A stretch of 24,608 nucleotides of DNA from a virus (lineage: Duplodnaviria > Heunggongvirae > Uroviricota > Caudoviricetes): IMG/VR virus record IMGVR_UViG_2534682159_000013. One strand, given 5' to 3'. The position numbers and the translations under genes are program-made. This document shows, piece after piece, positions 1 to 22,958 of this stretch. A model generated the notes under the pieces. It was not told the DNA's origin. It did not search any database and saw only the letters and a list, made by a program, of their open reading frames with translations. Within the stretch, counting starts at the first letter, position 1. Every line of letters begins with the position of its first letter.

Positions 1-1131
1 TCAAATGACCAGTTTTTTCCATTCCTTACCGCGTGCGTCGTTGTAAATATCGGTCATTTTTTGATTCGAATGGCCCAGCAAAATTTTGGTATCAATTCCC
101 TGTTCTCTGAACAATCGTTCTGATAAAGATCTCTGCTCATGGAAAGAGGGTGGGGTGCCATTAGCACGCCAGTTGTAATCCACAGAATCCCGGGCTTTTT
201 TAAATGCAACGGTTAACGTTGCTGGCTTAACCATCCCGCCGCGCTTAGCTGTCCCTTTAGCATGATGGTGGTGCAATAGCCACGGACTAAGAACGCAATC
301 GCGACAGGATGACACCACATCATCCAGGGTGAGATTTAATTTATCGCAACGCAGAGCCAGAGGGATGGCAATCCGGGTTCCTGTTTTTTGCTGTTCGACA
401 TGAAGATAACCATCCCTGATATCCGAAAATTTCATTTTGCAAATATCTGAAAGGCGCTGGCCTGTCATCAGTGCCAGCAGCATACCACGCTGTAAAAAGT
501 AACCATCCTTTTCCGCTGCATTATAAATCATCATCCACTCATCAAAGGTCAGTCGTTGCCGTGATATCCGTACCTGTGGTTTTTTTGCCGATTCTGCAGG
601 GTTAAAGCCTGGCGGGACATCGCCCGTTTGCTGGGCCTCCCGGAAAACATCAATCAGTACTTTCCTGAAAATTTGTCCCATTCTGTTATGTCCTTTTGCC
701 TTGTAATCTTCCAGCACCGATACCACATCTTTTACGGTTATGGCATCTAAAGGTCTGGTACTAAAACGTTCATCAAATACCCTGAGAGGGGATGCTTTCT
801 GTTTCAGTGTGTTGAGTTTGATCTCTCCGTTTTCATATCTTTCCTGTTGAATTTTTCGGTAACTATTCAGAAAAACAGAAACGGTTGATGAACCACCGGT
901 ATCACGAATAATTTTCTCCTGCAGAGTGAGCATTTGTTCCATTTGTTGCCTGGCAAGACGGCTGTTCGCTTCTGCTGCAATAGCTTCTGCCTGTTTCTGG
1001 TCAATACTGCCGAGCCCGTGATTTTTTCCTGTTATGGGATGCCTGTAACGCCAGTAAACTTTGTTATTTCTTTTGTCAAAATACGGAGATAATCCCGGAA
1101 CTTCAGTTTTATATTTTCGTGGGCGCGCCAT
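1..1131 (-). CDS. int: Tyrosine integrase, lambda Int family (complete, stop at 1-3)
   Basis: 376-aa ORF. The C-terminal region has lambda-Int-like blocks ('HVEQQKTGTRIAIPLAL', 'PPSFHEQRSLSERLF', 'LLGHS', 'REW'); first gene of the minus-strand int-xis-exo arm. Confidence 0.92.
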   Translation of the reverse strand: MARPRKYKTEVPGLSPYFDKRNNKVYWRYRHPITGKNHGLGSIDQKQAEAIAAEANSRLARQQMEQMLTLQEKIIRDTGGSSTVSVFLNSYRKIQQERYENGEIKLNTLKQKASPLRVFDERFSTRPLDAITVKDVVSVLEDYKAKGHNRMGQIFRKVLIDVFREAQQTGDVPPGFNPAESAKKPQVRISRQRLTFDEWMMIYNAAEKDGYFLQRGMLLALMTGQRLSDICKMKFSDIRDGYLHVEQQKTGTRIAIPLALRCDKLNLTLDDVVSSCRDCVLSPWLLHHHHAKGTAKRGGMVKPATLTVAFKKARDSVDYNWRANGTPPSFHEQRSLSERLFREQGIDTKILLGHSNQKMTDIYNDARGKEWKKLVI

Positions 1132-4362: not shown

Positions 4363-4890
4363 TATCGCGTCCTCAACAATGAATTTTGTGATGTGGTGCC
4401 TGGTGCCTCCAGGTGACGTTAACCAGTTAACAATTAACGCCGGATTGTTAGTTGATGTCTGTTACGCCAGTAAAAGACCGCTTGTTTTAACTGTTCCGCG
4501 TGCGCTTAGCCGCATTCACCGCATCACAAAATACACTTTAAAAATGGCGGATATCCATTTCCGCCGAATCACCAGAAAAGTGATAACAGAGGTTGTTGTG
4601 GCGGTGTTGTCACTCAGGCGTATGGTCAACCTGACAACCCGGTGCATTTTCTGGAGCAATGGAGGAAGCCTCAGCCATACTTACCGCCGCGCCATTTCGC
4701 GGATTGCCACAACCGGAAGCGCACGATCGAATTACATTTAACGACGACATATACAGAGAGACTAACTTCGCCGAGCGCTTTCGTGTTGTGTGCCTGCTTT
4801 TAACCACGTCAGGCGAGGTGGACCTGTTATTCCCCAACAACAAGGATCTTGTTAATCTGGATATCCCCAACAACAATAAGAGTATTGAAT

Positions 4891-7266: not shown

Positions 7267-8275
7267 AAAGGTGAAAACCGGCAGTTCATCCAGTAAGTCA
7301 GTATTGACCTGGCTTGCTGATATGTGCGGTGCCGATTTGTGCGCATACCCGTCTATATCTGCACTGGCAGAAGTAACGGAACTGAACAAAAAGACTGTGC
7401 AGGACAGTTTACGACACCTGATGGAGATTGGGTTAATTGTTGATACTGGTGAGAGAAAAGGCAGAACAAAGCAAATTGTGGTGTACCGACTTATCGGTGT
7501 AGAAGAAAGTGTTGCCGAGCCTGAATACACCCAAAAACGGGAGTCTTTAAAGGTGGGTAAAATTGGTACTGTTAATAAAAACAGTACCGAAAATGGTTAT
7601 GTTTCAGCACAAAACAAACCCAAAAACGGAACTCTTAGCTGCATGGAAAATAACCAAAGACACCCAAATTTTCCATCAAAGACACCCAAAAACGGATCAC
7701 GGAACCCAAAGGAACCCAAAGATCTAAACCCCACACATAACGCACGCGAGAGTGCTCCGACCAGTGAGCAGGAAGTTTTGTCGTTACAGGCAGCGCCCCC
7801 TGTATTCTTGGATGGCCTGAGCGAACCCATCGGGAAATTTTCGATGACTACTGTCTGGCAGCCGTCGCCGGATTTTCGACAACGGGCAGCAGTGTGGGGT
7901 ATGGCTCTGCCTGAGCCGGAATTTACACCTGCTGAGCTTGCCGCATTCCGGGATTACTGGATGGCGGAGGGGAAGGTTTTCACGCAGGTTCAGTGGGAGC
8001 AGAAATTTGCCCGCCACGTGCAGCACGTCAGGGCACAGGTAAAACCAGTCAGCAAGGGGGTAAGCCATGCAGCATCAGGTGGCACGGCATCACGGGCAGT
8101 TCAGGAAATCCGGGCAGCACGCGAACAGTGGGAACGTGAAAACGGATTTATCAGCAACGGAAACGGCCTGGAAGCTGTGGGAGCTTATGGGGGAGGTGTA
8201 TTCGAACCGCTGGACTCAGAAGAATGGGGCCGCACCTTCGAAGCTCTGGATTGCCCAGATTGGTGCGATGACTGA
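7238..8275 (+). CDS. Replication initiation protein, O-like (N-terminal winged-helix, C-terminal DnaT-like region)
   Basis: 345 aa from the ATG at 7238 ('MSIDALRWAKKV...'). N-terminal HTH 'SISALAEVTELNKKTVQDSLRHLMEIGLI'; followed by the P-like gene. Confidence 0.7.
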   Translation: MSIDALRWAKKVKTGSSSSKSVLTWLADMCGADLCAYPSISALAEVTELNKKTVQDSLRHLMEIGLIVDTGERKGRTKQIVVYRLIGVEESVAEPEYTQKRESLKVGKIGTVNKNSTENGYVSAQNKPKNGTLSCMENNQRHPNFPSKTPKNGSRNPKEPKDLNPTHNARESAPTSEQEVLSLQAAPPVFLDGLSEPIGKFSMTTVWQPSPDFRQRAAVWGMALPEPEFTPAELAAFRDYWMAEGKVFTQVQWEQKFARHVQHVRAQVKPVSKGVSHAASGGTASRAVQEIRAAREQWERENGFISNGNGLEAVGAYGGGVFEPLDSEEWGRTFEALDCPDWCDD

Positions 8276-11399: not shown

Positions 11400-11601
11400 T
11401 GCGGGGAAAGAAGAGTTAAGTAGAATTGCTGCGGGTGCTTGAGGCTGTCTGCCTCGGGCATGCCGCCGTAAGGCAGACAGAGAAAAGCCCCAGTTAACAT
11501 TACGCGTCTTGCAGGACGCTTAACATTAATCTGAGGCCCAATCTATGCTTCACAAACGTAGGTTAGCCTCTTACGTGCCGAAAGGCAAGGAGAAGCAGGC
11601 T
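11400..11601. promoter_or_regulatory. hok mRNA leader with fold-back structure; expected region for an antisense Sok-like RNA
   Basis: Inverted repeat 'ctgtctgcct..aggcagacag' (11425-11456) and 'gcgtc ttgcag gacgc' hairpin. No Sok promoter or terminator could be pinned down by eye. Confidence 0.3.
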
Positions 11602-11757
11602 ATGAAGCAGCAAAAGGCGATGTTAATCGCCCTGATCGTCATCTGTATTACCGTTGTTGTGACGGCACTGGTAACGAGGAAAGACCTCTGCGAGGTACGA
11701 ATCCGAACCGGCCAGACGGAGGTCGCTGTCTTCGTAGACTACGAATCTGAGAAGTAA
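11602..11757 (+). CDS. hokD: Hok/Gef family type I toxin (HokD/RelF-like)
   Basis: 51 aa 'MKQQKAMLIALIVICITVVVTALVTRKDLCEVRIRTGQTEVAVFVDYESEK', matching the Hok consensus and close to my recollection of HokD. AGGAG 9 nt upstream. An in-frame upstream ATG at 11545 gives a 70-aa mok-like extension. Confidence 0.85.
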   Translation: MKQQKAMLIALIVICITVVVTALVTRKDLCEVRIRTGQTEVAVFVDYESEK

Positions 11758-13261: not shown

Positions 13262-13624
13262 ATGCTCATAGATTTGGTTTTACCTTACCCGCCGACGGTG
13301 AACACTTACTGGCGACGCCGTGGCAGCACATATTTTGTATCAAAAGCCGGGGAGCGTTATCGCCGGGCAGTGGCGCTTATTGTTCGCCAGCAGCGACTGA
13401 AATTAAGCCTGTCCGGACGGCTGGCAATAAAAATTATTGCAGAGCCACCGGATAAGCGCCGCCGTGACCTGGACAATATTCTGAAAGCACCGCTGGATGC
13501 GCTGACGCACGCGGGGTTGTTAATGGACGATGAGCAGTTTGATGAAATCAATATTGTACGTGGCCAGCCAGTATCTGGTGGACGGCTGGAGATAAGAATT
13601 ACAGAGGTGGGTGTGCATGAATAA
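13262..13624 (+). CDS. rusA: Holliday junction resolvase RusA
   Basis: 120-aa ORF. 'DKRRRDLDNILKAPLDALTHAGLLMDDEQ..GGRLEIRITE' aligns with E. coli RusA ('[39 protein letters not shown]'). Confidence 0.9.
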   Translation: MLIDLVLPYPPTVNTYWRRRGSTYFVSKAGERYRRAVALIVRQQRLKLSLSGRLAIKIIAEPPDKRRRDLDNILKAPLDALTHAGLLMDDEQFDEINIVRGQPVSGGRLEIRITEVGVHE

Positions 13625-14282
13625 CCAGTATTTACAGTTTGTTCGTGAGCAACTCATGATTGCCACTGCGGATCTTAGTGGGTCGACAAAAGGCCAGCTG
13701 GAAGCCTGGCAGGAAAATGCCCTGTTCGATACAGGGCGTTACAGACGCAAAAAAATTCGTTACCGCGATGAGGTAACCGGAAAAATGATCACGCGGGATA
13801 ATCCCCCGATCCCGGGTAAACAATCACTGGCGAAAGGCTCATCAATTGCCCTGGTCAGTCCGGTTGAGTTTTCGACATCATCATGGCGACGCGCCGTTCT
13901 GTCTCTTGAAGAACATCATAAAGCCTGGCTGCAGTGGTGTTACAGCGGTAGCATTTGCTGGGAGCATCAGATCGCGATAACGCAGTGGGCGTGGACTGAA
14001 TTTAATGCTCAATCCGGTACCAGAAAAATTGCAGGAAAAACTCTGGTGCGCCTGAAGACGTTGATCTGGTTGGCGGCGCAGGCGGTAAAAGCTGAGCTTT
14101 TTGGTGGGGAAGGTTACGAATACCAGGAACTGGCGTTACTGGTGGGAGTAACAACCAAAAACTGGTCCAAGACATTTACTGGTCACTGGGTTGCAATGAA
14201 ACACATTTTTCATCGGCTGGATAGTGAAGCTTTATTGTTGGTGGAGGGAACTCGTTCAAAACAAAAGGCGGCATTTTCATAG
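13617..14282 (+). CDS. Putative late antiterminator Q (assigned by position)
   Basis: 221 aa from an ATG overlapping the rusA stop (ATGAATAA). Sits immediately upstream of a promoter and short-transcript terminator, as Q, PR' and tR' do in lambdoid phages. No Q motif recognised. Confidence 0.5.
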   Translation: MNNQYLQFVREQLMIATADLSGSTKGQLEAWQENALFDTGRYRRKKIRYRDEVTGKMITRDNPPIPGKQSLAKGSSIALVSPVEFSTSSWRRAVLSLEEHHKAWLQWCYSGSICWEHQIAITQWAWTEFNAQSGTRKIAGKTLVRLKTLIWLAAQAVKAELFGGEGYEYQELALLVGVTTKNWSKTFTGHWVAMKHIFHRLDSEALLLVEGTRSKQKAAFS

Positions 14283-16954: not shown

Positions 16955-17031
16955 CCGCCATTAGCTCATCGGGATAGAGCGCCAGCCTTCGAAGCTGGCT
17001 GCGCGGGGTTCGAGTCCTCGATGGCGGTCCA
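16955..17031 (+). tRNA. tRNA-Arg (anticodon UCG)
   Basis: Cloverleaf: acceptor ccgccat/atggcgg, D-arm gctc..gagc, anticodon stem ccagc/gctgg with loop 'ctTCGaa', T-arm cgggg ttcgagt cctcg, 3' CCA. Confidence 0.8.
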
Positions 17032-17309
17032 TTATCTGCATTATGCGTTGTTGGTTCTGATGAGTGAATCATTGTCTTTTGAGCAACAGGCTATCATATA
17101 AGATAGCCTCAGACTTCCTTGTTTATTCTCGCCGGATGCTTCGTAGATATTTGCAGGCATCTGTATGCAGGGGTATTATTGCGGCATATATCATCCGGAA
17201 AAATAAAAACTACATGCTGATCCGGAGATGATAGTTACAAGTCCTCCCGGATCCCGCATATTTACTATATTTTATAGATAATTGTTCTTGTTAATATGGA
17301 GATGGATAA

Positions 17310-17738
17310 ATGTATTGCCGTGCTGTACCTGTTCTTGTTTTGATATTAGCCAGTCTGACAACTGGCTGCACAAAAGATGTATCGACAAATAATCATGATG
17401 CTTCTCTGTATCACTCAGATAAATTAATAAAGTCGCAAAAATTGAGCTCATCGGAACGTACCCCTGATGCCAGTGAAGAAATCCGGCAGTATGCCATTCA
17501 GGTCAGGAAAGCCATAGAAGAACAGTTAAAGGATGCGAGTAAGTATTCAGGAAAAGAGTGTTCACTGAGAATGTATATGGCCCCGAATGGTCTTCTGCTA
17601 CAGGTTAAAAGAGAAAGCGGTGATCCCGATTTATGTCGTGAAGCGATGAATGCAGTAAAGAATGCTGATATACCATCACCACCGTCTTCAGGAGTATATA
17701 AAGCATTTAGAAATGGCGTGTTGGATTTTAAACTCTGA
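17310..17738 (+). CDS. Lipoprotein with TolA C-terminal (TolAIII)-like domain
   Basis: 142-aa ORF with GGAGATGG Shine-Dalgarno. Signal peptide ending 'LASLTTGC' (lipobox-like). C-terminal 'YSGKECSLRMYMAPNGLLLQVKRESGDPDLCREAMNAVKNADIPSPPSSGVYKAFRNGVLDFKL' aligns along its length with my recollection of E. coli TolA domain III ('YAGKTCTLRIKLAPDGMLLDIKPEGGDPALCQAALAAAKLAKIPKPPSQAVYEVFKNAPLDFKP'). Confidence 0.8.
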   Translation: MYCRAVPVLVLILASLTTGCTKDVSTNNHDASLYHSDKLIKSQKLSSSERTPDASEEIRQYAIQVRKAIEEQLKDASKYSGKECSLRMYMAPNGLLLQVKRESGDPDLCREAMNAVKNADIPSPPSSGVYKAFRNGVLDFKL

Positions 17739-17874
17739 CAGGGGGAGAAGATTTTCTCCTGTCCTGATGATTTTGGGGCGCTGGAAAGATATTGTGCTGT
17801 GAAGTGTTAAATCCCTCACAATTCAGTAAGTTGACAGTTGCCTGTCAGACTGAGCATTTGTTAAAAAAATTTCG

Positions 17875-18052
17875 CATGGTGAATCCCCCTGTGCGGAGGG
17901 GCGACTGGTGAACGGTATGATCTCTTTGATGATCGTAAGCGAGAATACGCGGGTTTGGTGTCACCGGGCTGAACTCACCGGGAGGCACCCGGCACCATGC
18001 TCATGGTGATACAGAAATGCGGCTTCAGCCCCTCTCCGGAGGGGCTTTCTTA
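17875..18052 (+). ncRNA. Solitary copy (A) of the repeat-encoded structured RNA
   Basis: Conserved 5' module 'catggtgaatccccctgtgcggagggg', variable middle, conserved 3' module 'caccgggaggcacccggcaccatg', then terminator 'gcccctctccggaggggc' + T-rich tail. In the ATG frame there is a stop after 11 codons. Confidence 0.45.
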
Positions 18053-18204
18053 TGGACAAAAAAAGCCCGCGCTGGGAGACGCGGGCGGCAAGGAATAAAC
18101 AATAAAACGTGAAGTAATACTTCAACTGGCGAATAATACCCGACAGTAATCACTCTGCGCAATAGCGTGGCCTTTTTCGAATTGCGGGCTGTAGTCTCCC
18201 TTCT

Positions 18205-18370
18205 GCCGGGTGTCCTGGTTGCAGATTTCTTCATGGGGTAGGGTTCGGCAGTTAAAGCAGCGATGGCGCTGGGGCGTCGTGCAACTGGCGTTGAGCTGGA
18301 TACCGGGCGTTTTGAACAGATTGCGCAGGAAATCAGGGATGTATTTAGCGGGAGCGGTTTGCAGAAGTAA
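18205..18370 (+). pseudogene. 3' remnant of a second copy of the DNA methyltransferase gene
   Basis: Nucleotide homology to 16672-16830; the first ~100 nt are near-identical by eye. Encodes '..LVADFFMG*GSAVKAAMALGRRATGVELD..' with an in-frame TAG where the intact gene has a Ser codon; no 5' part of the gene is present. Confidence 0.7.
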
Positions 18371-18433
18371 TCTCCCAAAATGCCATTTTTGGAATATACT
18401 GGTATTAAGTCTTTTTGCTCAGGTTAATTCAAA

Positions 18434-19159
18434 ATGGATGTTGCCTGCTCTGTGGTCCTGATTCGCTATCCGATAGATATTTTTCTTGAAAAAGAAAAAG
18501 TTTCACTCGATGCCGGAAGTGTTATGCTTGTTGCCAGAAATATAAGAGGGCTTTTCTGTGCTTATGCCGACAGAGTGAAAATGGCAGATATAAGTAACAG
18601 CGTCGTCAATCAGTATCTGGAAAGGGAGTGTGAACTGACGGAGTATACACCGACAAAAATGCCTCTTTATTTGATGTCTGATATTTACAATACGGAACTG
18701 GCGGAGGCTTTAATAACCCAGCATAGTGAATCCAGTGATACTTTGAAGGATTTCTCTGTTATAACCGCATTTTCATGTATCTCCTTATTTGCAACAGACA
18801 GACGTCTGCCATTATTTTTGTCCGGTGCTGTAAATAATATCAGCTGTAAAGTAAGGGCTATAATTCAGACCGACATATCGGCAGGCTGGATGCTTGGTGT
18901 GATTGCATTACAATTGCATATGAGCGAAAGCTTGTTGAAGCGAAAACTTAAGGATGAAGGTTATAGCTTTAGTCGGTTGTTGCTGGAGGAGCGAATGCGT
19001 GTTGCTGTTAATCTTGTATGTTTCCAGCGAGAGTGTGGACAAGCGATAGCGGAAAAATGTGGTTACTCAAGTAAGTCCTACTTCATTTCTGTATTTCACC
19101 AGTATTATGGTGCACCACCTGAGAGCTATGCATATTTGCAGAAAGCAGACGTTATCTGA
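18434..19159 (+). CDS. AraC/XylS-family transcriptional regulator (prophage-encoded)
   Basis: 241-aa ORF. C-terminal double HTH ('WMLGVIALQLHMSESLLKRKLKDEGYSFSRLLLEERMRVAVNLV..AIAEKCGYSSKSYFISVFHQYYGAPP'). AT-rich. Confidence 0.8.
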   Translation: MDVACSVVLIRYPIDIFLEKEKVSLDAGSVMLVARNIRGLFCAYADRVKMADISNSVVNQYLERECELTEYTPTKMPLYLMSDIYNTELAEALITQHSESSDTLKDFSVITAFSCISLFATDRRLPLFLSGAVNNISCKVRAIIQTDISAGWMLGVIALQLHMSESLLKRKLKDEGYSFSRLLLEERMRVAVNLVCFQRECGQAIAEKCGYSSKSYFISVFHQYYGAPPESYAYLQKADVI

Positions 19160-19248
19160 TGTTTTTTCATCAGGCATATATTGATTGACTGTATTAGATA
19201 TAGTCTGAATGTGTTCAGCATAAAAAGTTATAATCATTTGGTGTTTGC

Positions 19249-19527
19249 GTGAATATTGATGAGAAAATCAGATGTAGCCAACTGTTACAGCGTATTGAAG
19301 CCGTCAATGTGGAACGAACAAAGGTCTTCAGTCGTCTGACAGTTTTATTTTGTACCCCTGATCGACGTTCAGGTCAGGAGATGGTTCTTCTGGATGTAGA
19401 TGCACTTCGGAACGTCTGTGAGGAGTTCACCGCGGCTAATTCGGAGTTACTGAGTCTTGTTCAGGAGTACAACAGAATTGCAGGTAGTAACGGTTTTGAT
19501 GAAATCAAAATTATATCCCGTGGATAA
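19249..19527 (+). CDS. Hypothetical small protein (weak call)
   Basis: 92-aa ORF from a GTG start; TATAAT at 19227-19232 immediately upstream; no Shine-Dalgarno. Confidence 0.3.
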   Translation: MNIDEKIRCSQLLQRIEAVNVERTKVFSRLTVLFCTPDRRSGQEMVLLDVDALRNVCEEFTAANSELLSLVQEYNRIAGSNGFDEIKIISRG

Positions 19528-19846
19528 AACATATCCTGTATATTTATGTTGTTACATACAGGCGCTTTTAGTATCTGCCGCACGGCAGTTGTACTTCAGA
19601 ATAAGATGCTTTTGTGACTGGTGGTGTTGTATCTGGGGTTAGCCAGTAGGCAGGTTCAGAGAGTCCGGTGGTAATTATGTGTATGCAGTGGTTGTTGCTG
19701 TACCGTGGGCAAGTTCTGGAACTGGCTTCGTCCATTGTAGATGATTGTTAGCTGGATATCAGTTACCTCATGGAAATGTTAAATGACTCACAATTCGGTT
19801 GATGGGCTATTGTCTGATCGATGGAAGTCTTGTAAAAACGAGCCAG

Positions 19847-20010
19847 CATAGTGAATCCCCCTGTGCGGAGGGGCGTCTGACATGGTCTCCATAGCGATGG
19901 TCACAATACGCAGATTCAGTAGTCAGGCTGAATCTACCGGGAGGCACCCGGCACTATGCTGCTTATGGTGTATACATAGCGATCGGCCCCTCTCCGGAGG
20001 GGCTTTTTTT
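19847..20010 (+). ncRNA. Repeat-encoded structured RNA, copy B
   Basis: 5' 'catAgtg' pairs with 3' 'cacTatg' (compensatory change relative to the other copies); no ATG at the 5' module. Confidence 0.45.
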
Positions 20011-20105
20011 GTGCGGGAAAAGGCTGTGTTGTTAAGTGTTAAATTCCTCACAGTTCAGATGGTTGATGCTTGCCTGTCTGAGGGGGAGTTGTTAAAAAAG
20101 TTCTG

Positions 20106-20279
20106 CATGGTGAATCCCCCTGTGCGGAGGGGCGACTGGTGTGATTTGCATCTTTTCTGTTGTAGGCAATGCAAACGCGGGTTCAGGGACACCAGACTGG
20201 ACTCACCGGGAGGCACCCGGCACCATGTTCATGATGATACAGATACGCAGTGTCAGCCCCTCTCCTGAGGGGCTTTTTT
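20106..20279 (+). ncRNA. Repeat-encoded structured RNA, copy C
   Basis: 5' catggtg pairs with 3' caccatg. Variable region carries nested stems 'ctggtgt..acaccag' and 'tttgcat..atgcaaa'. Confidence 0.45.
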
Positions 20280-20375
20280 ATGCAGGAAAAACGCTGTGTT
20301 GTGAAATGTTAAATTCCTCACAGTTCAGATGGTTGATGCTTGCCTGTCTTACGGGGAGTTGTTAAAAAAGTTCTG

Positions 20376-20539
20376 CATGGTGAATCCCCCTGAGCGGAGG
20401 GGCATATCAGCGCAGGTGTTTCTACTCTATCCTTTCTGTGCGGGTTCAGGTGCTGATACTGAACTCACCGGGAGGCACCCGGCATCATGCATATGGTTAA
20501 CAGACACGTAGCGAAGCCCCTCTCCGGAGGGGCTTTTTT
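20376..20539 (+). ncRNA. Repeat-encoded structured RNA, copy D
   Basis: 5' catggtg pairs with 3' catcatg (one G-U). Variable stem 'tatcagc..gctgata'. Loop of the 5' hairpin is changed (gagcgg) while the stem is kept. Confidence 0.45.
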
Positions 20540-20636
20540 ATGCAGGGAAAAGGCTGTGTTGTGAAATGTTAAATTCCTCACAATTCATGAGGTTGATGAT
20601 TGTCTGATTGATGAGGAGTTTGTTAAAAAAAACGGG

Positions 20637-20790
20637 CATGGTGAATCCCCCTGTGCGGAGGGGTGATATCGTATCATTTCCTGTGTGGCCGACTGATATC
20701 ACGGACATTTGTTCACCGGGAGGCACCCGGCACCATGCAGTATACAGAGATTAGGCATACATCCAGGCTCCTCATCGCAGGAGCCTTTTT
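20637..20790 (+). ncRNA. Repeat-encoded structured RNA, copy E
   Basis: 5' catggtg pairs with 3' caccatg. Variable stem 'gtgatatc..gatatcac'. Terminator sequence differs ('ggctcct catcgc aggagcc ttttt') but sits at the same position. Confidence 0.45.
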
Positions 20791-21023
20791 ACATGTAAAA
20801 AAAAACCGCTCCTGGGAAGAGCGGTTGGCAAGGAAGCAAGGAATAAATAACAAAACGTGAAGTAATTTATTCAGCACCCTAATAATACCTTAGAGTAATC
20901 ACCTTGCGCAACTGTAAGGGCGTATTTCTTTTTTGCGGGCTGTTTTTCTGTGTGACTTTTGTGTTTCCGGAGGTCAGCCCGTGCCTTCTCTGACTCAGAA
21001 CATTATCCCGGCCGGGAGGATTC

Positions 21024-22958
21024 ATGGCATTTAAACACTACGATGTGGTCAGGGCGGCATCGCCGTCAGACCTTGCTGAACGACTGACACAAAAACTGAA
21101 GGAGGGCTGGCAGCCATTTGGCAGTCCGGTGGCCATCACGCCTTATACCCTGATGCAGGCCATTGCGGCGGAAGGTGATGTCACCACACCAGTGGCGGTG
21201 ACCGGTAATGAGGGTAAGGCGGTGGCTGTCAGTGCCACCAGCGACCCGGAGTATTACTTTGTTGTGGTTCTGGCAGGGCAGTCAAATGGCATGTCGTATG
21301 GTGAAGGTCTTCCGCTGCCGGAGACATATGACCGCCCGGACCCGCGTATTAAGCAGCTGGCGCGCCGCAGTACGGTGACACCGGGCGGTGCAGCATGCAA
21401 ATATAACGACATCATTCCGGCGGACCATTGTCTGCATGATGTGCAGGACATGAGCCGCCTTAACCATCCGAAAGCGGACCTGTCAAAGGGGCAGTACGGA
21501 ACCGTGGGGCAGGGACTGCATATCGCCAAAAAACTGCTGCCGTTTATACCGGCGAATGCGGGCATTCTGCTGGTTCCGTGCTGTCGTGGTGGTTCAGCGT
21601 TCACCACCGGAGCTGATGGCACATACAGTGACGCGAGTGGTGCCTCGGAGAATTCAACCCGCTGGGGTATGGACAAGCCGCTGTATAAGGACCTTATCGG
21701 TCGAACAAAAGCAGCACTGAAGAAGAGCCCGAAAAATGTGCTGTTGCCGTGGTGTGGATGCAGGGGAATTGATTTTGGCGGTACGCCGGTAAATCACGCA
21801 GCACAGTTTGGTGCGCTGGTTGATAAATTCCGTGCAGACCTGGCGGATATGGCAGGTCAGTGCGTCGGTGGCTCTGCTGGCGGTGTTCCCTGGATATGTG
21901 GAGATACGACGTATTTCTGGAAGCAGAAGAACGAATCCACGTACCAGACGGTGTACGGCAGCTATAAAAACAAAACGGAAAAGAATATCCATTTCGTACC
22001 GTTCATGACGGATGAGAACGGGGTGAATGTGCCGACGAACAAACCGGAAGAAGACCCGGACATTCCGGGTATCGGGTATTACGGTTCGAAATGGCGTGAC
22101 AGCTCAGCCACCTGGACGTCACAGGACAGGGCGAGCCATTTCAGCACCTGGGCACGCCGGGGGATTATTTCCGACCGTCTGGCAACGGCGATTCTGATTC
22201 ATGCAGGACGAACCACAGTAAAAGTCGATGCTCCATCTTCTGAAACTGGCGCACCGACGCCATCACCGTCAGAAAATGAAGCGGTAAGCACAACAACACT
22301 GCTGTCTTACCGTGCCAGTGAGTCTGAAGGGAGGCTGACCGAACAGGGCTGGAGTGCTGGAGGAGGTAAAGCGGAAATTGTTGCCGATGAAGGTGCAACA
22401 GGTGGTACCGCGATGAAGCTGAGTAAGGAGACAGGAGTGGGGGCATGGTATCTGGAGCATGATGCCGGTACTGGCGCTGAACTACTGAAAAATGGCGGTT
22501 TAATCAGCTGCCGCTTTAAGGCATCCGGTGAACTGGTAGCAAATCAGTATGTCATTGCACTTTACTGGCCGGTTTCCTCTCTGCCGCAGGGTGTCACCCT
22601 GACAGGGGATGCAGGGAATAATCTGCTGGCAGCGTTCTACATCCAGACAGATGCAAAAGACCTGAATGTGATGTACCACAATGCGAAAGTGGCGACAAAC
22701 AACCTGAAGCTGGGAAGCTTTGGCGCATTTGATAACGAATGGCATACGCTGGCCTTCCGCTTTGCCGGGAATAACAGCCTTCAGGTGACGCCGGTTCTTG
22801 ATGGTCAGGATGGCACACCGTTCACGCTGACGCAGTCACCGGTCAGTGCCTTTGCGGCGGATAAACTGCATGTGACAGACATTACCAAAGGTGCGACTTA
22901 CCCGGTACTGATAGACAGCATTACGGTGGAAGTGAATAACGCGGATGCCGCGGCATGA
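21024..22958 (+). CDS. nanS: NanS-p-like sialate O-acetylesterase (SASA/SGNH domain plus C-terminal beta-rich domain)
   Basis: 644-aa ORF. 'FVVVLAGQSNGMSYGEG' (GQSN esterase motif). Size and position (late region, upstream of holin S) match the NanS-p/YjhS-like gene of Stx phages. Confidence 0.8.
   Translation: MAFKHYDVVRAASPSDLAERLTQKLKEGWQPFGSPVAITPYTLMQAIAAEGDVTTPVAVTGNEGKAVAVSATSDPEYYFVVVLAGQSNGMSYGEGLPLPETYDRPDPRIKQLARRSTVTPGGAACKYNDIIPADHCLHDVQDMSRLNHPKADLSKGQYGTVGQGLHIAKKLLPFIPANAGILLVPCCRGGSAFTTGADGTYSDASGASENSTRWGMDKPLYKDLIGRTKAALKKSPKNVLLPWCGCRGIDFGGTPVNHAAQFGALVDKFRADLADMAGQCVGGSAGGVPWICGDTTYFWKQKNESTYQTVYGSYKNKTEKNIHFVPFMTDENGVNVPTNKPEEDPDIPGIGYYGSKWRDSSATWTSQDRASHFSTWARRGIISDRLATAILIHAGRTTVKVDAPSSETGAPTPSPSENEAVSTTTLLSYRASESEGRLTEQGWSAGGGKAEIVADEGATGGTAMKLSKETGVGAWYLEHDAGTGAELLKNGGLISCRFKASGELVANQYVIALYWPVSSLPQGVTLTGDAGNNLLAAFYIQTDAKDLNVMYHNAKVATNNLKLGSFGAFDNEWHTLAFRFAGNNSLQVTPVLDGQDGTPFTLTQSPVSAFAADKLHVTDITKGATYPVLIDSITVEVNNADAAA

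Follow-up and report, generated by a model that had tools for sequence, protein, structure and literature searches.

The window analyzed here is a stretch of 24,608 nucleotides from a tailed phage (Caudoviricetes; IMG/VR record IMGVR_UViG_2534682159_000013). It contains, in order, the antiterminator gene Q (13611-14282), tRNA genes, a TolA-like moron, a solitary repeat unit (A, 17806-18051), an AraC-like moron, four further units arranged head to tail (B to E, 19777-20792), a nanS-p-like esterase gene and the lysis genes, with all five units on the plus strand. In each unit a promoter block precedes a structured RNA of ~155-178 nt with an intrinsic terminator (Table 1), and RefSeq annotates no CDS over the array. 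The units lie between Q/PR' and the lysis genes (holin) in the lambdoid late region, a context that recurs in Superficieibacter, and occupy the 'convergent sRNA dyad' site described between these genes by Tree et al. (2014). The proposal that they are EHEC/STEC prophage sRNA genes is supported.

Table 1. Repeat units and associated elements in the window; RNA ends are predicted.
Feature	Position	Strand	Evidence
Unit A promoter block, TGTTAAAT..CTCACAATTC..TTGACA..TTGCCT-N18-TAAAAA	17806..17873	+	upstream block conserved in five units
STnc100-family sRNA copy A, ~178 nt (core, tail, terminator)	17874..18051	+	RF02076 172.4 bits, model 1-206
Copy A terminator	18027-18046	+	terminator scan
Copy A MFE fold: P1, P2, insert hairpin, P3, P4	17874..18051	+	z = -3.1
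Unit B promoter block, degraded (TTGTAAAAACG)	19777..19845	+	alignment; one T missing before -10-like element
STnc100-family sRNA copy B, ~165 nt, compensated P1 CAUAGUG/CACUAUG	19846..20010	+	RF02076 119.5 bits; fold z = -3.1
Copy B terminator	19985-20004	+	terminator scan
Unit C promoter block	20037..20104	+	alignment; homologue upstream blocks
STnc100-family sRNA copy C, ~177 nt	20105..20281	+	RF02076 140.8 bits; folds
Copy C P1	20105-20112 with 20221-20228	+	fold
Copy C P2	20116-20132	+	fold
Copy C predicted pseudoknot, 5' arm CUGGUGU with ACACCAG (P3 loop)	20136-20142 with 20189-20195	+	duplex -11.7 kcal/mol
Copy C insert hairpin	20145-20175	+	fold
Copy C P3	20179-20186 with 20197-20204	+	fold
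Copy C P4	20206-20220	+	fold
Copy C tail; terminator	20229-20254; 20255-20274	+	
Unit D promoter block	20307..20374	+	alignment; homologue upstream blocks
STnc100-family sRNA copy D, ~167 nt; P1 keeps G-U	20375..20541	+	RF02076 141.7 bits; fold
Copy D predicted pseudoknot, AUAUCAGC with GCUGAUA		+	duplex -13.7 kcal/mol
Unit E promoter block	20567..20635	+	alignment; homologue upstream blocks
STnc100-family sRNA copy E, ~157 nt	20636..20792	+	RF02076 141.3 bits; fold
Copy E UGAUAUC/GAUAUCA helix, nested beside small P3 (GGAC/GUUC)		+	fold
Copy E tail and terminator, different from other copies (GGCUCCUC..GAGGAGCC)	terminator 20765-20786	+	terminator scan
Convergent short sRNA-like gene after copy A ('dyad' partner)	18060..18170	-	terminator 18086-18065; homologous to element after copy E
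Convergent short sRNA-like gene after copy E	20798..20920	-	terminator 20826-20804
Sixth, divergent core copy between DicF-like sRNA and dicB, without own terminator	~4390-4528	-	RF02076 33 bits

The repeat pattern reported in the original prediction, four tandem units plus a solitary fifth sharing one plan, is real by module counts, Tandem Repeats Finder and alignment. The 5' module GAATCCCCCTGNGCGGAGGGG occurs exactly five times on the plus strand (at 17881, 19853, 20112, 20382 and 20643) and has zero matches in shuffled sequences, and the 3' module ACCGGGAGGCACCCGGCA has five occurrences at corresponding positions. Tandem Repeats Finder reports a 270-bp period at 19986-20663 with 82% matches, and the tandem units are spaced by 259, 270 and 261 bp. 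The five-way alignment has a mean column identity of 76%; conservation covers the upstream block, the two modules and the terminator in all five units. The variable segment, earlier described as 50-65 nt long and completely different between copies, actually spans 51-75 nt, and its 3' half is a hairpin (P3) common to units A, C and D and present in a related form in unit B. The units would represent diverged siblings that arose by duplication and unequal recombination across the conserved modules. A single chimera in an IMG/VR contig (L040), in which the promoter and 5' strand of unit B are fused to the body of unit E, has an A·C left uncompensated in P1, the closing helix, and is the expected product of array collapse by recombination. 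Tandem arrays recur in 89 of 5426 E. coli genomes and also in Superficieibacter; O91:H21 strain FWSEC0008 (NZ_CP031906) is one array carrier.

All five units match the Rfam family STnc100 (RF02076, 'Gammaproteobacterial sRNA STnc100') at full length (model positions 1-206 of 206) with 119-172 bits, family membership requiring at least the curated gathering score of 47 bits over the full model. The consensus helices (P1, P2, P3, P4 and the terminator) were all found in the units by model alignments, independent MFE folds and covariation, and the Rfam consensus already holds the closing helix, both conserved hairpins and P3. A sub-threshold Rfam scan of 17000-21100 returned no family besides STnc100. 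The repeats are five copies of a catalogued prophage sRNA, and the family is not new. The statement that they could not be placed in a known RNA family is overturned by these end-to-end matches far above threshold, and the modules do match an already annotated RNA family, though one whose role is only partly known. Of the earlier interpretation, the non-coding structured prophage RNAs with a covarying helix stand, whereas the unplaced family and the guide-like reading do not.

Nothing essential distinguishes the units from STnc100, with which they share the prophage late-region context. Positions 1-~29 of the RF02076 model appear to span promoter DNA (TTGTTAAAAAA) upstream of the likely start. 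The discovery value is small: any annotation based on Rfam or Bakta would name the units STnc100, and the dyad locus has been in the literature since 2014. The locus is nevertheless a reminder of how little is known of STnc100, which is among the most frequently annotated enterobacterial sRNA families. What the analysis adds is a covariation-backed pseudoknotted core, a modular build of promoter, core and tail, the recurrence of arrays and, in the dicBF operon of K-12, a setting where genetics is easy, a related core.

The GC hairpin and T-run noted at the unit ends correspond to terminators. A terminator scan detected 14 terminator-like sites against 3.2 expected; one of them ends each of units A, B, C and E, while for unit D it picks up just the inner stem (5 pairs, 20519-20532) of the corresponding hairpin. 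Among 88 distinct homologues, 80 have a terminator at most 200 nt away (median tail 27 nt), and in ~70 the end of the best -10-like element lies 9-14 nt upstream of the invariant GUG. The upstream block class of the units also precedes many homologues, and the one core is found behind at least four promoter types, and in front of several tails, that are unrelated to each other. A candidate CRP-like site in unit C is centred near -61. The strict scan detected no plus-strand promoter because the -10 element is TAAAAA or TAAAAG, without the final T, and the promoters are visible under relaxed criteria only. The start site of the window units was inferred from PasD2, whose 5' end, by an RNA-seq estimate, is the G just before CAUGGUG and whose RNA measures 172 nt. 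With a promoter of its own under the relaxed criteria and a Rho-independent terminator with a U-tail, each unit has the architecture of an Hfq-sRNA gene. A sigma-54 promoter was rejected by eye, as TGG is absent from unit A and the TGG..TTGC spacing falls short by one base.

The closing helix P1 reads CATGGTG/CACCATG; unit B carries CATAGTG/CACTATG, a compensatory change from G-C to A-U, and unit D, with CATGGTG/CATCATG, keeps the pairing as G-U. The proposed covariation of this helix is confirmed and extends to 48 diverse homologue cores from many Enterobacterales genera, which served as the covariation set. In these cores 92.5% of cells pair, compared with 42-48% when partners are slid, and their covariation score was reached by none of 500 shuffles. 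Both-side changes were observed in five of the eight pairs of P1 and in seven of the eight pairs of P3, and P4 shows a CG to UA change. P2 is invariant in the 48 sequences and fits three registers (that of Rfam with a C·A mismatch, a bulged-A form and a CUUG tetraloop in PasD). Independent MFE folds of the five cores give one multi-branch plan with z from -1.4 to -3.1. Although P1, P3 and the pseudoknot described below covary freely, GUGAAUCCCCCU..GCGGAGGGGC and CGGGAGGCACCCGGCAC hardly vary in 15 or more genera, and the invariant core sequence extends from Pantoea to Escherichia. Kissing between the P2 loop (GUGC) and P4 (GCAC) was rejected by eye, as a common P2-loop variant, UGAGCG, breaks the pairing without compensation. 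A tRNA-like reading, with a 7-bp P1 stacked on a 5-bp P4, is a loose analogy only: ARAGORN finds only two real tRNAs, the P4 loop has 5 nt and the CCA lies inside P1.

The self-complementarity noted in the variable segment is real, and in unit E it forms a nested hairpin. In units A to D, however, the 3' partner of the variable 5' arm sits inside the P3 loop, and what had been taken for a variable hairpin is, according to the folding and duplex models, one arm of a predicted pseudoknot with that loop. The units' own arms and P3 loops pair with -7.6 kcal/mol against -4.1 kcal/mol for permuted partners (z = -12), and the duplex of unit C ranks first of 55 against all other P3 loops. A covariance model is unable to represent a pseudoknot. 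No description of a pseudoknot in the STnc100 core was found in the literature searched.

Two groups of experimentally detected relatives bear on the function of the units. EcOnc27/sRNA103, located downstream of stx2B in EHEC Sakai and EDL933, was detected by Hfq-CRAC and Northern blot. It belongs to the same family and has the same position, being the plus-strand member of a convergent pair that lies between the moron site of PR' and the lysis genes, and published STnc_100 PCR primers match the commonest IMG/VR variant. The window copies differ from it in the variable insert, in the tail and in the arms of the pseudoknot (AUCAGC/GCUGAU arms are common to it and unit D alone), and the locus differs in having TolA-like and AraC-like morons in place of stx and four tandem copies instead of one.

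PasD1 and PasD2 of EPEC E2348/69, homologues of EcOnc13, were detected by RIL-seq and Northern blot, and their common ancestry with STnc100 has already been published. The PasD seed CCUUGUGAG, the only one mapped in the family, lies in the 3' tail and is complementary to the target motif CUCACAGG. PasD follows the same core plan (P1 GCAUGG/CCAUGC, GUGAAUCC, the P2 hairpin, GGGAGGC), its AAUGAUC can pair with GAUCAUU in the P3 loop as in the window core, and it sits, like the window units, upstream of an esterase gene. It differs in its scores of 41 and 38 bits, which are below the RF02076 gathering score, in a degenerate P4, in a TTGACT-type promoter and in a longer tail of ~50 nt with the mapped seed; the promoter block and tails of the window units are different. 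The window units are related to PasD without being PasD. The insert of unit E (UAUCAUUUCCUGUGUGG) has an apparent similarity to the PasD tail around the seed (UAUCAUUUUCCUUGUGAG). Duplicated genes with shared scaffolds and diverged segments, some of them in tandem, also characterize the sibling sRNA sets OmrA/B, PrrF1/2 and Qrr1-5, with which a 2026 preprint compares the Pas RNAs. According to that preprint, the Pas copies are distal and not tandem, whereas the four STnc100 units here are in tandem, with a promoter and a terminator for each.

A convergent minus-strand sRNA-like gene lies behind unit A and another behind unit E, which is the published layout of the AsxR/AgvB dyads (Tree et al. 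2014). The two minus-strand elements are homologous, with a conserved 3' terminator region, and by eye the 3' part of the element after copy A closely resembles the EPEC RIL-seq candidate E2348C_1409.E2348C_1408.IGR. Neither partner matches Rfam AsxR or AgvB at E <= 1, and the gene after copy E matches no Rfam family at that threshold; they nonetheless resemble the anti-sRNA class, whose members combine ~42 nt of conserved 3' sequence with 14-18 variable nt at the 5' end. The plus-strand units, at 155-178 nt, are not anti-sRNAs, as AsxR and AgvB measure 51-60 nt.

The count of five full units is correct, but a sixth, divergent copy is present on the minus strand. It scores below the gathering threshold (33 bits, E = 6.7e-5) and keeps P1, P3, a compensated P4 (CCUGG/CCAGG) and a candidate pseudoknot of CAGUUAA with UUAACUG. 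In 4119 of 5426 E. coli genomes, K-12 included, this divergent core occupies the dicF-dicB spacer and lies ~25 nt upstream of the start of dicB. Papers on DicF processing report nothing on the spacer, and we found no description of the core homologue in the literature searched.

Taken as a whole, the units are probably stand-alone STnc100-family genes of ~155-178 nt that form a set of sibling, Hfq-dependent base-pairing sRNAs. In each unit a sigma-70-type promoter would start transcription 0-2 nt before P1, and the first 105-130 nt would form a compact core domain closed by this helix. Within the core, P2 (the invariant CCCCC..GGGG hairpin) is followed by the variable insert and by P3, whose loop is predicted to form the pseudoknot with the strand immediately 3' of P2, and then by P4 (the invariant CCGGG-AGGCA-CCCGG hairpin), abutting the 3' strand of P1. 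An unpaired tail of ~25-30 nt and a Rho-independent terminator with a U-tail would complete the RNA. Tail, terminator and U-tail make up the usual Hfq-binding end of an enterobacterial sRNA. The analysis establishes family membership, fold, covariation, gene architecture and genomic position, whereas expression of these copies, their Hfq binding, the function of the core, and the target and seed sequences are inferred as follows. By homology with EcOnc27/sRNA103 and PasD1/2, the RNAs would be made in the lysogen, bind Hfq and pair with mRNAs in trans. For targeting they would use the unpaired tail, in line with what has been shown for PasD, with the exposed loop of the insert as a possible second site. 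The structured 5' domain would bury the 5' end and act as a stabilising or scaffold module, while the unit terminators would also shield the esterase and lysis genes downstream from transcription in the lysogen. The 'different seed hairpins' suggested earlier are unproven, as the variable 5' arm is committed to the predicted pseudoknot and the mapped PasD seed lies in a tail.

Several observations count against this explanation. The elaborate pseudoknotted core, with its wide invariance, exceeds the needs of a 5' stabiliser, and the promoter of unit B looks degraded. Our literature search found no paper establishing a function or targets for STnc100 proper. The five RNAs have no complementarity of 14 nt or more to the rest of the 39-kb prophage; at 12 nt or more (Watson-Crick, both strands) there are three matches of 12-13 nt, about the chance expectation. 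In addition, in a supplementary table of Pearl Mizrahi et al. the log2 fold changes of pasD are near or above zero, unlike those of pasA, pasB and pasC; if that table compares the hfq mutant with the wild type, pasD abundance is not Hfq-dependent.

Alternatively, the pseudoknotted 5' domain could itself be the effector, a protein- or ligand-binding module such as a decoy, sponge or recognition element for a host or phage factor, with the tails, promoters and terminators as mere delivery contexts and Hfq base-pairing as secondary. The near-invariance of the core motifs alongside covarying helices, the combination of one core with many promoters and tails, and the terminator-less core in the dicF-dicB spacer speak in its favor. 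We regard it as unlikely, as no gene besides phage late-region genes is consistently adjacent, no partner has been identified, the relatives were found precisely through Hfq binding and mRNA chimeras, and recent horizontal phage spread may account for part of the sequence conservation. Somewhat less doubtful, although still tentative, is the broader suggestion that the ~110-nt core (P1, P2, pseudoknot, P3 and P4) could be an autonomous pan-Enterobacterales RNA module with its own function, reused by phages across contexts. These would include the 5' end of late-region sRNAs, single or arrayed, and the spacer upstream of dicB, and the function might be the binding of a host or phage protein or the control of processing and decay. 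It is improbable that the units serve mainly as transcription insulators, that is, as stacked promoter-terminator cassettes that block lysogenic read-through into the esterase and lysis genes, are passed only by Q-modified polymerase and yield the RNAs as by-products. A strong terminator does end each unit, convergent terminators flank units A and E, and the arrays of E. coli and Superficieibacter alike lie directly upstream of the lysis cassette, but a terminator has no need of a conserved, covarying 110-nt pseudoknotted domain, and family members are abundant discrete sRNAs with RNA partners. A put-like cis antiterminator was rejected on related grounds, as the relatives accumulate as discrete terminated RNAs of ~172 nt.

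Two further readings have very little probability. A constant scaffold, variable internal segments, tandem repeats and a pseudoknot would also suit a guide-like RNA of a mobile-element enzyme (bridge RNA, omega RNA or reRNA) or a type III antitoxin-like array. Type III antitoxin arrays (ToxI-like) are tandem RNA repeats whose units fold as pseudoknots. No recombinase, transposase, TnpB/IscB or other nuclease, or ToxN-like endoribonuclease toxin gene adjoins the units, however; the Pfam-checked neighbours in the window (TolA-C-like, AraC-like, esterase and lysis genes) and at the homologous locus L129 (lysozyme and Rz) are phage late genes and morons. The units are, moreover, 260-bp genes individually transcribed and terminated from their own promoters, not short processed repeats of ~36 nt, and intramolecular pairing would use up the variable 5' arm; the guide-like suggestion is rejected. 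Translation from the ATG inside CATGGTG is equally hard to credit. Units C, D and E do have ORFs of 38-53 codons from that ATG, but the frame of unit A ends after 11 codons and in unit B the ATG is replaced by ATA. The distance between the modules is 0, 2, 0, 1 and 0 modulo 3, so the frames differ, and P1 reads GUGGUG, GCGGUG or ACGGUG in other genera. Pfam finds nothing for ORFs over the array and the substitutions are compensatory at the RNA level, so the claim of RNA-level conservation, to which the lack of a RefSeq CDS also adds, is upheld.

STnc100 sits where the Shiga toxin genes sit in Stx phages, and sequence variants of the stx2-linked copy are among the HUS-predictive features in a machine-learning study of O157.

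All five repeat units in the window (A solitary, B-E head-to-tail) were assigned by the Rfam scan to the STnc100 family, RF02076, at full length and with 119-172 bits (gathering threshold, 47 bits). The Rfam consensus already includes the closing helix together with three hairpins, the two conserved ones and the one that precedes the 3′ module. Thus, the original prediction was wrong in stating that no known RNA family fits, and its structural inferences were correct and agree with the curated model. The repeats are real but already known at the family level, as RF02076, as the EcOnc27/sRNA103 and PasD lineage, and as an sRNA dyad locus. The STnc100 copy located 3′ of stx2B, known as EcOnc27 in Sakai and as sRNA103 in EDL933, is an Hfq-bound sRNA confirmed by Northern. 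PasD1 and PasD2 of EPEC, which are abundant and ∼172 nt long, were discovered by Hfq RIL-seq and confirmed by Northern blot, and a 2026 preprint assigns them common ancestry and structure with STnc100.

The 17700-21100 region is identical to a lambdoid prophage adjoining ompW in E. coli O91:H21 strain FWSEC0008. The earlier description of the sequence was borne out on checking. The plus strand has five copies of the 5′ module GAATCCCCCTGNGCGGAGGGG and five of the 3′ module ACCGGGAGGCACCCGGCA, and shuffled sequence essentially none of either. Tandem Repeats Finder reports a 270-bp period in the array, and the five-way alignment shows conservation of the upstream block and the two modules as well as of a GC hairpin with a T-run after it. 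The terminator scan identified 14 terminator-like sites versus 3.2 expected; units A, B, C and E all end in one of these, and for unit D it lists the inner stem of the same end hairpin. The argument that the units are non-coding also holds: unit A has a stop after 11 codons, unit B has ATA for ATG, and the module frames differ. Over the array, Pfam gave no match and RefSeq has no annotated CDS. The first 13 nt of RNA B recur inside the AraC-like gene (GCATAGTGAATCC), which is probably chance or a remnant.

Coordinates of the predicted RNAs and associated features (window positions unless stated)
Feature	Position	Strand	Remark
Predicted RNA, unit A	17874-18051	+	
Predicted RNA, unit B	19846-20010	+	
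Predicted RNA, unit C	20105-20281	+	
Predicted RNA, unit D	20375-20541	+	
Predicted RNA, unit E	20636 to about 20792	+	
CRP-like sites	17808-17828, 19779-19799, 20039-20059, 20309-20329, 20569-20589	+	by eye
Tails with P1-like repeat	18002-18026, 19961-19984, 20230-20254, 20492-20515		units A-D
Unit E insert	20664-20690		
PasD2 tail compared with unit E insert	L122 (compared DNA piece) 575-600		
Match to start of RNA B	18721-18733	+	in AraC-like gene
sRNA-like gene convergent to unit A	18060-18170	-	short, own terminator
sRNA-like gene convergent to unit E	20798-20920	-	short, own terminator
Divergent STnc100-like pseudoknotted domain	4390-4528	-	no terminator; between DicF-like sRNA and dicB
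DicF-like sRNA	~4586-4540	-	
K-12 dicF-dicB domain	NC_000913 1649435-1649608 (L164 536-709)		
sok antitoxin RNA	11433-11607	+	RF01794

An exact-pattern scan of IMG/VR found 138 units on 120 contigs, with 45 distinct variable segments among them. By a degenerate scan using one genome per species, the core was found in Klebsiella, Pantoea, Erwinia, Kosakonia, Citrobacter, Enterobacter, Kluyvera, Raoultella, Franconibacter, Mangrovibacter, Superficieibacter and others. The 400-kb plasmid pAPP145_2 of Pantoea sp. App145 carries four core copies (pieces L127, L130 and L133); in L127 the surroundings, 8 kb with few ORFs and without Pfam matches, may not be prophage.

The nested helices, namely the closing helix P1 and the core hairpins P2, P3 and P4, were tested on 48 diverse cores. 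In the four helices 92.5% of cells pair, versus 42-48% with partners slid by 1-3 columns, and none of 500 shuffles reached the observed covariation score. Both sides have changed in five of the eight P1 pairs (e.g. AUGGUG/CACCAU, GUGGUG/CACCAC, GCGGUG/CACCGC, CAGAUG/CAUCUG) and in seven of the eight P3 pairs; P4 shows CG to UA in Pantoea and Erwinia, and P2 is invariant. The strand just 3′ of P2 has its complement in the P3 loop and not in a simple hairpin partner, forming a pseudoknot for which more than 10 different arm pairs occur, e.g. AUCAGC/GCUGAU, CUGGUG/CACCAG, CCAGUC/GACUGG, ACUGGAUA/UAUCCAGU, AAGCCAG/CUGGCUU and, in PasD, AAUGAUC/GAUCAUU. An arm with its own loop averages -7.6 kcal/mol versus -4.1 with permuted partners (z = -12). 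Units A-D possess the pseudoknot, the corresponding helix in unit E is a nested hairpin next to a small P3, and the MFE folds of all five cores have the same multi-branch plan.

A terminator follows the core within 200 nt in 80 of 88 distinct homologues, the unpaired tail between them has a median length of 27 nt, and the best -10-like element stops 9-14 nt short of the invariant GUG in ∼70. This position implies that transcription starts at the foot of P1; for PasD2, the published start is the G preceding CAUGGUG. The core occurs behind at least four promoter types with no relation to one another and in front of several unrelated tails, thus the genes are modular. By eye, all five promoter blocks contain TGTTA-N6-TCACA, which agrees with the CRP consensus at 9 of 10 core bases and is centered ∼60.5-61.5 bp upstream of the inferred start, as is classic for class I sites; in many homologues TTTTA replaces TGTTA. 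In units A-D the tail starts with a near-repeat of the P1 5′ strand (CAUGGUGAUAC, UAUGGUGUAUAC, CAUGAUGAUAC and UAUGGUUAAC, respectively), which could pair with the P1 3′ strand as an alternative hairpin; the unit E tail lacks it.

The analysis shows family membership, fold and gene architecture, and we infer that the five window copies are expressed, bind Hfq and have targets. They are best explained as sibling Hfq-dependent, base-pairing sRNAs, with specificity carried by the tails and perhaps also by exposed loops of the insert between P2 and P3, which are pyrimidine-rich in A, C, D and E; the core would bury the 5′ end and act as a scaffold or stabiliser. The sole mapped seed in the family, CCUUGUGAG of PasD (target motif CUCACAGG), sits in the 3′ tail. 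Comparison of the RNAs with the rest of the prophage gave no significant complementarity. The unit E insert (UAUCAUUUCCUGUGUGG) is closely similar to the PasD tail around this seed (UAUCAUUUUCCUUGUGAG), which lies in a different part of the RNA; this could reflect module shuffling, or the two may have converged on a shared target motif.

The most serious rival to the reading as tail-specific sRNAs is that the effector is the STnc100 core. In favour of this, the core sequence hardly varies between genera while its helices covary, and a divergent core, which lacks a terminator and ends ∼25 nt before the dicB start, retains P1, P3, P4 (compensated CCUGG/CCAGG) and the pseudoknot. This window domain scores below the Rfam threshold against RF02076 (33 bits, E = 6.7e-5). 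In K-12 this domain, likewise below that threshold, takes up the dicF-dicB spacer (34 bits, E = 1.4e-5; fold z = -3.3), and it occurs without annotation in 4119 of 5426 complete E. coli genomes; no mention of it was found in the searchable literature. However, a core acting as effector has no known partner. Readings of the array as an insulator, or of the units as guide RNAs, an antitoxin array or small-protein genes, are weak. The strongly conserved, unexplained pseudoknotted core, the recurrent arrays and the relative of this core inside the dicBF operon are still of interest. The DicF-like sRNA (UUUUCUGGUGAUUCGGCGGAAAUGGAUAUCCGCCAUUUUU) just upstream of the divergent domain has the DicF seed in common with DicF and did not reach E <= 1 against Rfam DicF.

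The C-D junction is present in 89 and the entire 3.4-kb region in 77 of the 5426 complete E. coli genomes. Superficieibacter has three tandem copies directly upstream of lysozyme and Rz, and two other compared pieces (L050, L146) have paired copies ∼260-270 bp apart. Since the 2026 preprint describes Pas copies as distal, not tandem, such STnc100 arrays add modestly to published knowledge. One IMG/VR contig (L040, UViG_2534682157_000012, ∼8030-8190) holds one chimeric unit with the promoter and 5′ P1 strand (CATAGTG) of B and the body and tail of E (CACCATG). It looks like the product of recombination collapsing a B-to-E array, from which its uncompensated A·C mismatch in P1 is expected.

In at least eight Sakai prophages, Tree et al. 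(2014) described paired, convergent genes for Hfq-binding sRNAs in the moron site that separates PR′ from the lysis genes. The window fits this locus type: Q (13611-14282) comes first, then two tRNAs and a TolA-C-terminal-like moron; unit A, an AraC-like moron and units B-E follow, and a nanS-p-like esterase precedes holin and lysozyme. Behind both unit A and unit E lie a convergent terminator on the minus strand and a common ∼110-nt block, which form two mutually homologous sRNA-like genes that matched no Rfam family. By eye, these genes look like the "dyad" partners of Tree et al. (2014), and the 3′ part of the block is closely similar to the EPEC RIL-seq candidate E2348C_1409.E2348C_1408.IGR. 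In the copy after unit E the TTCCTTGC motif is duplicated. Finally, a sok antitoxin RNA (117.7 bits) adjoins a Hok/Gef family gene, thus the prophage with the array also carries a hok/sok-type module.
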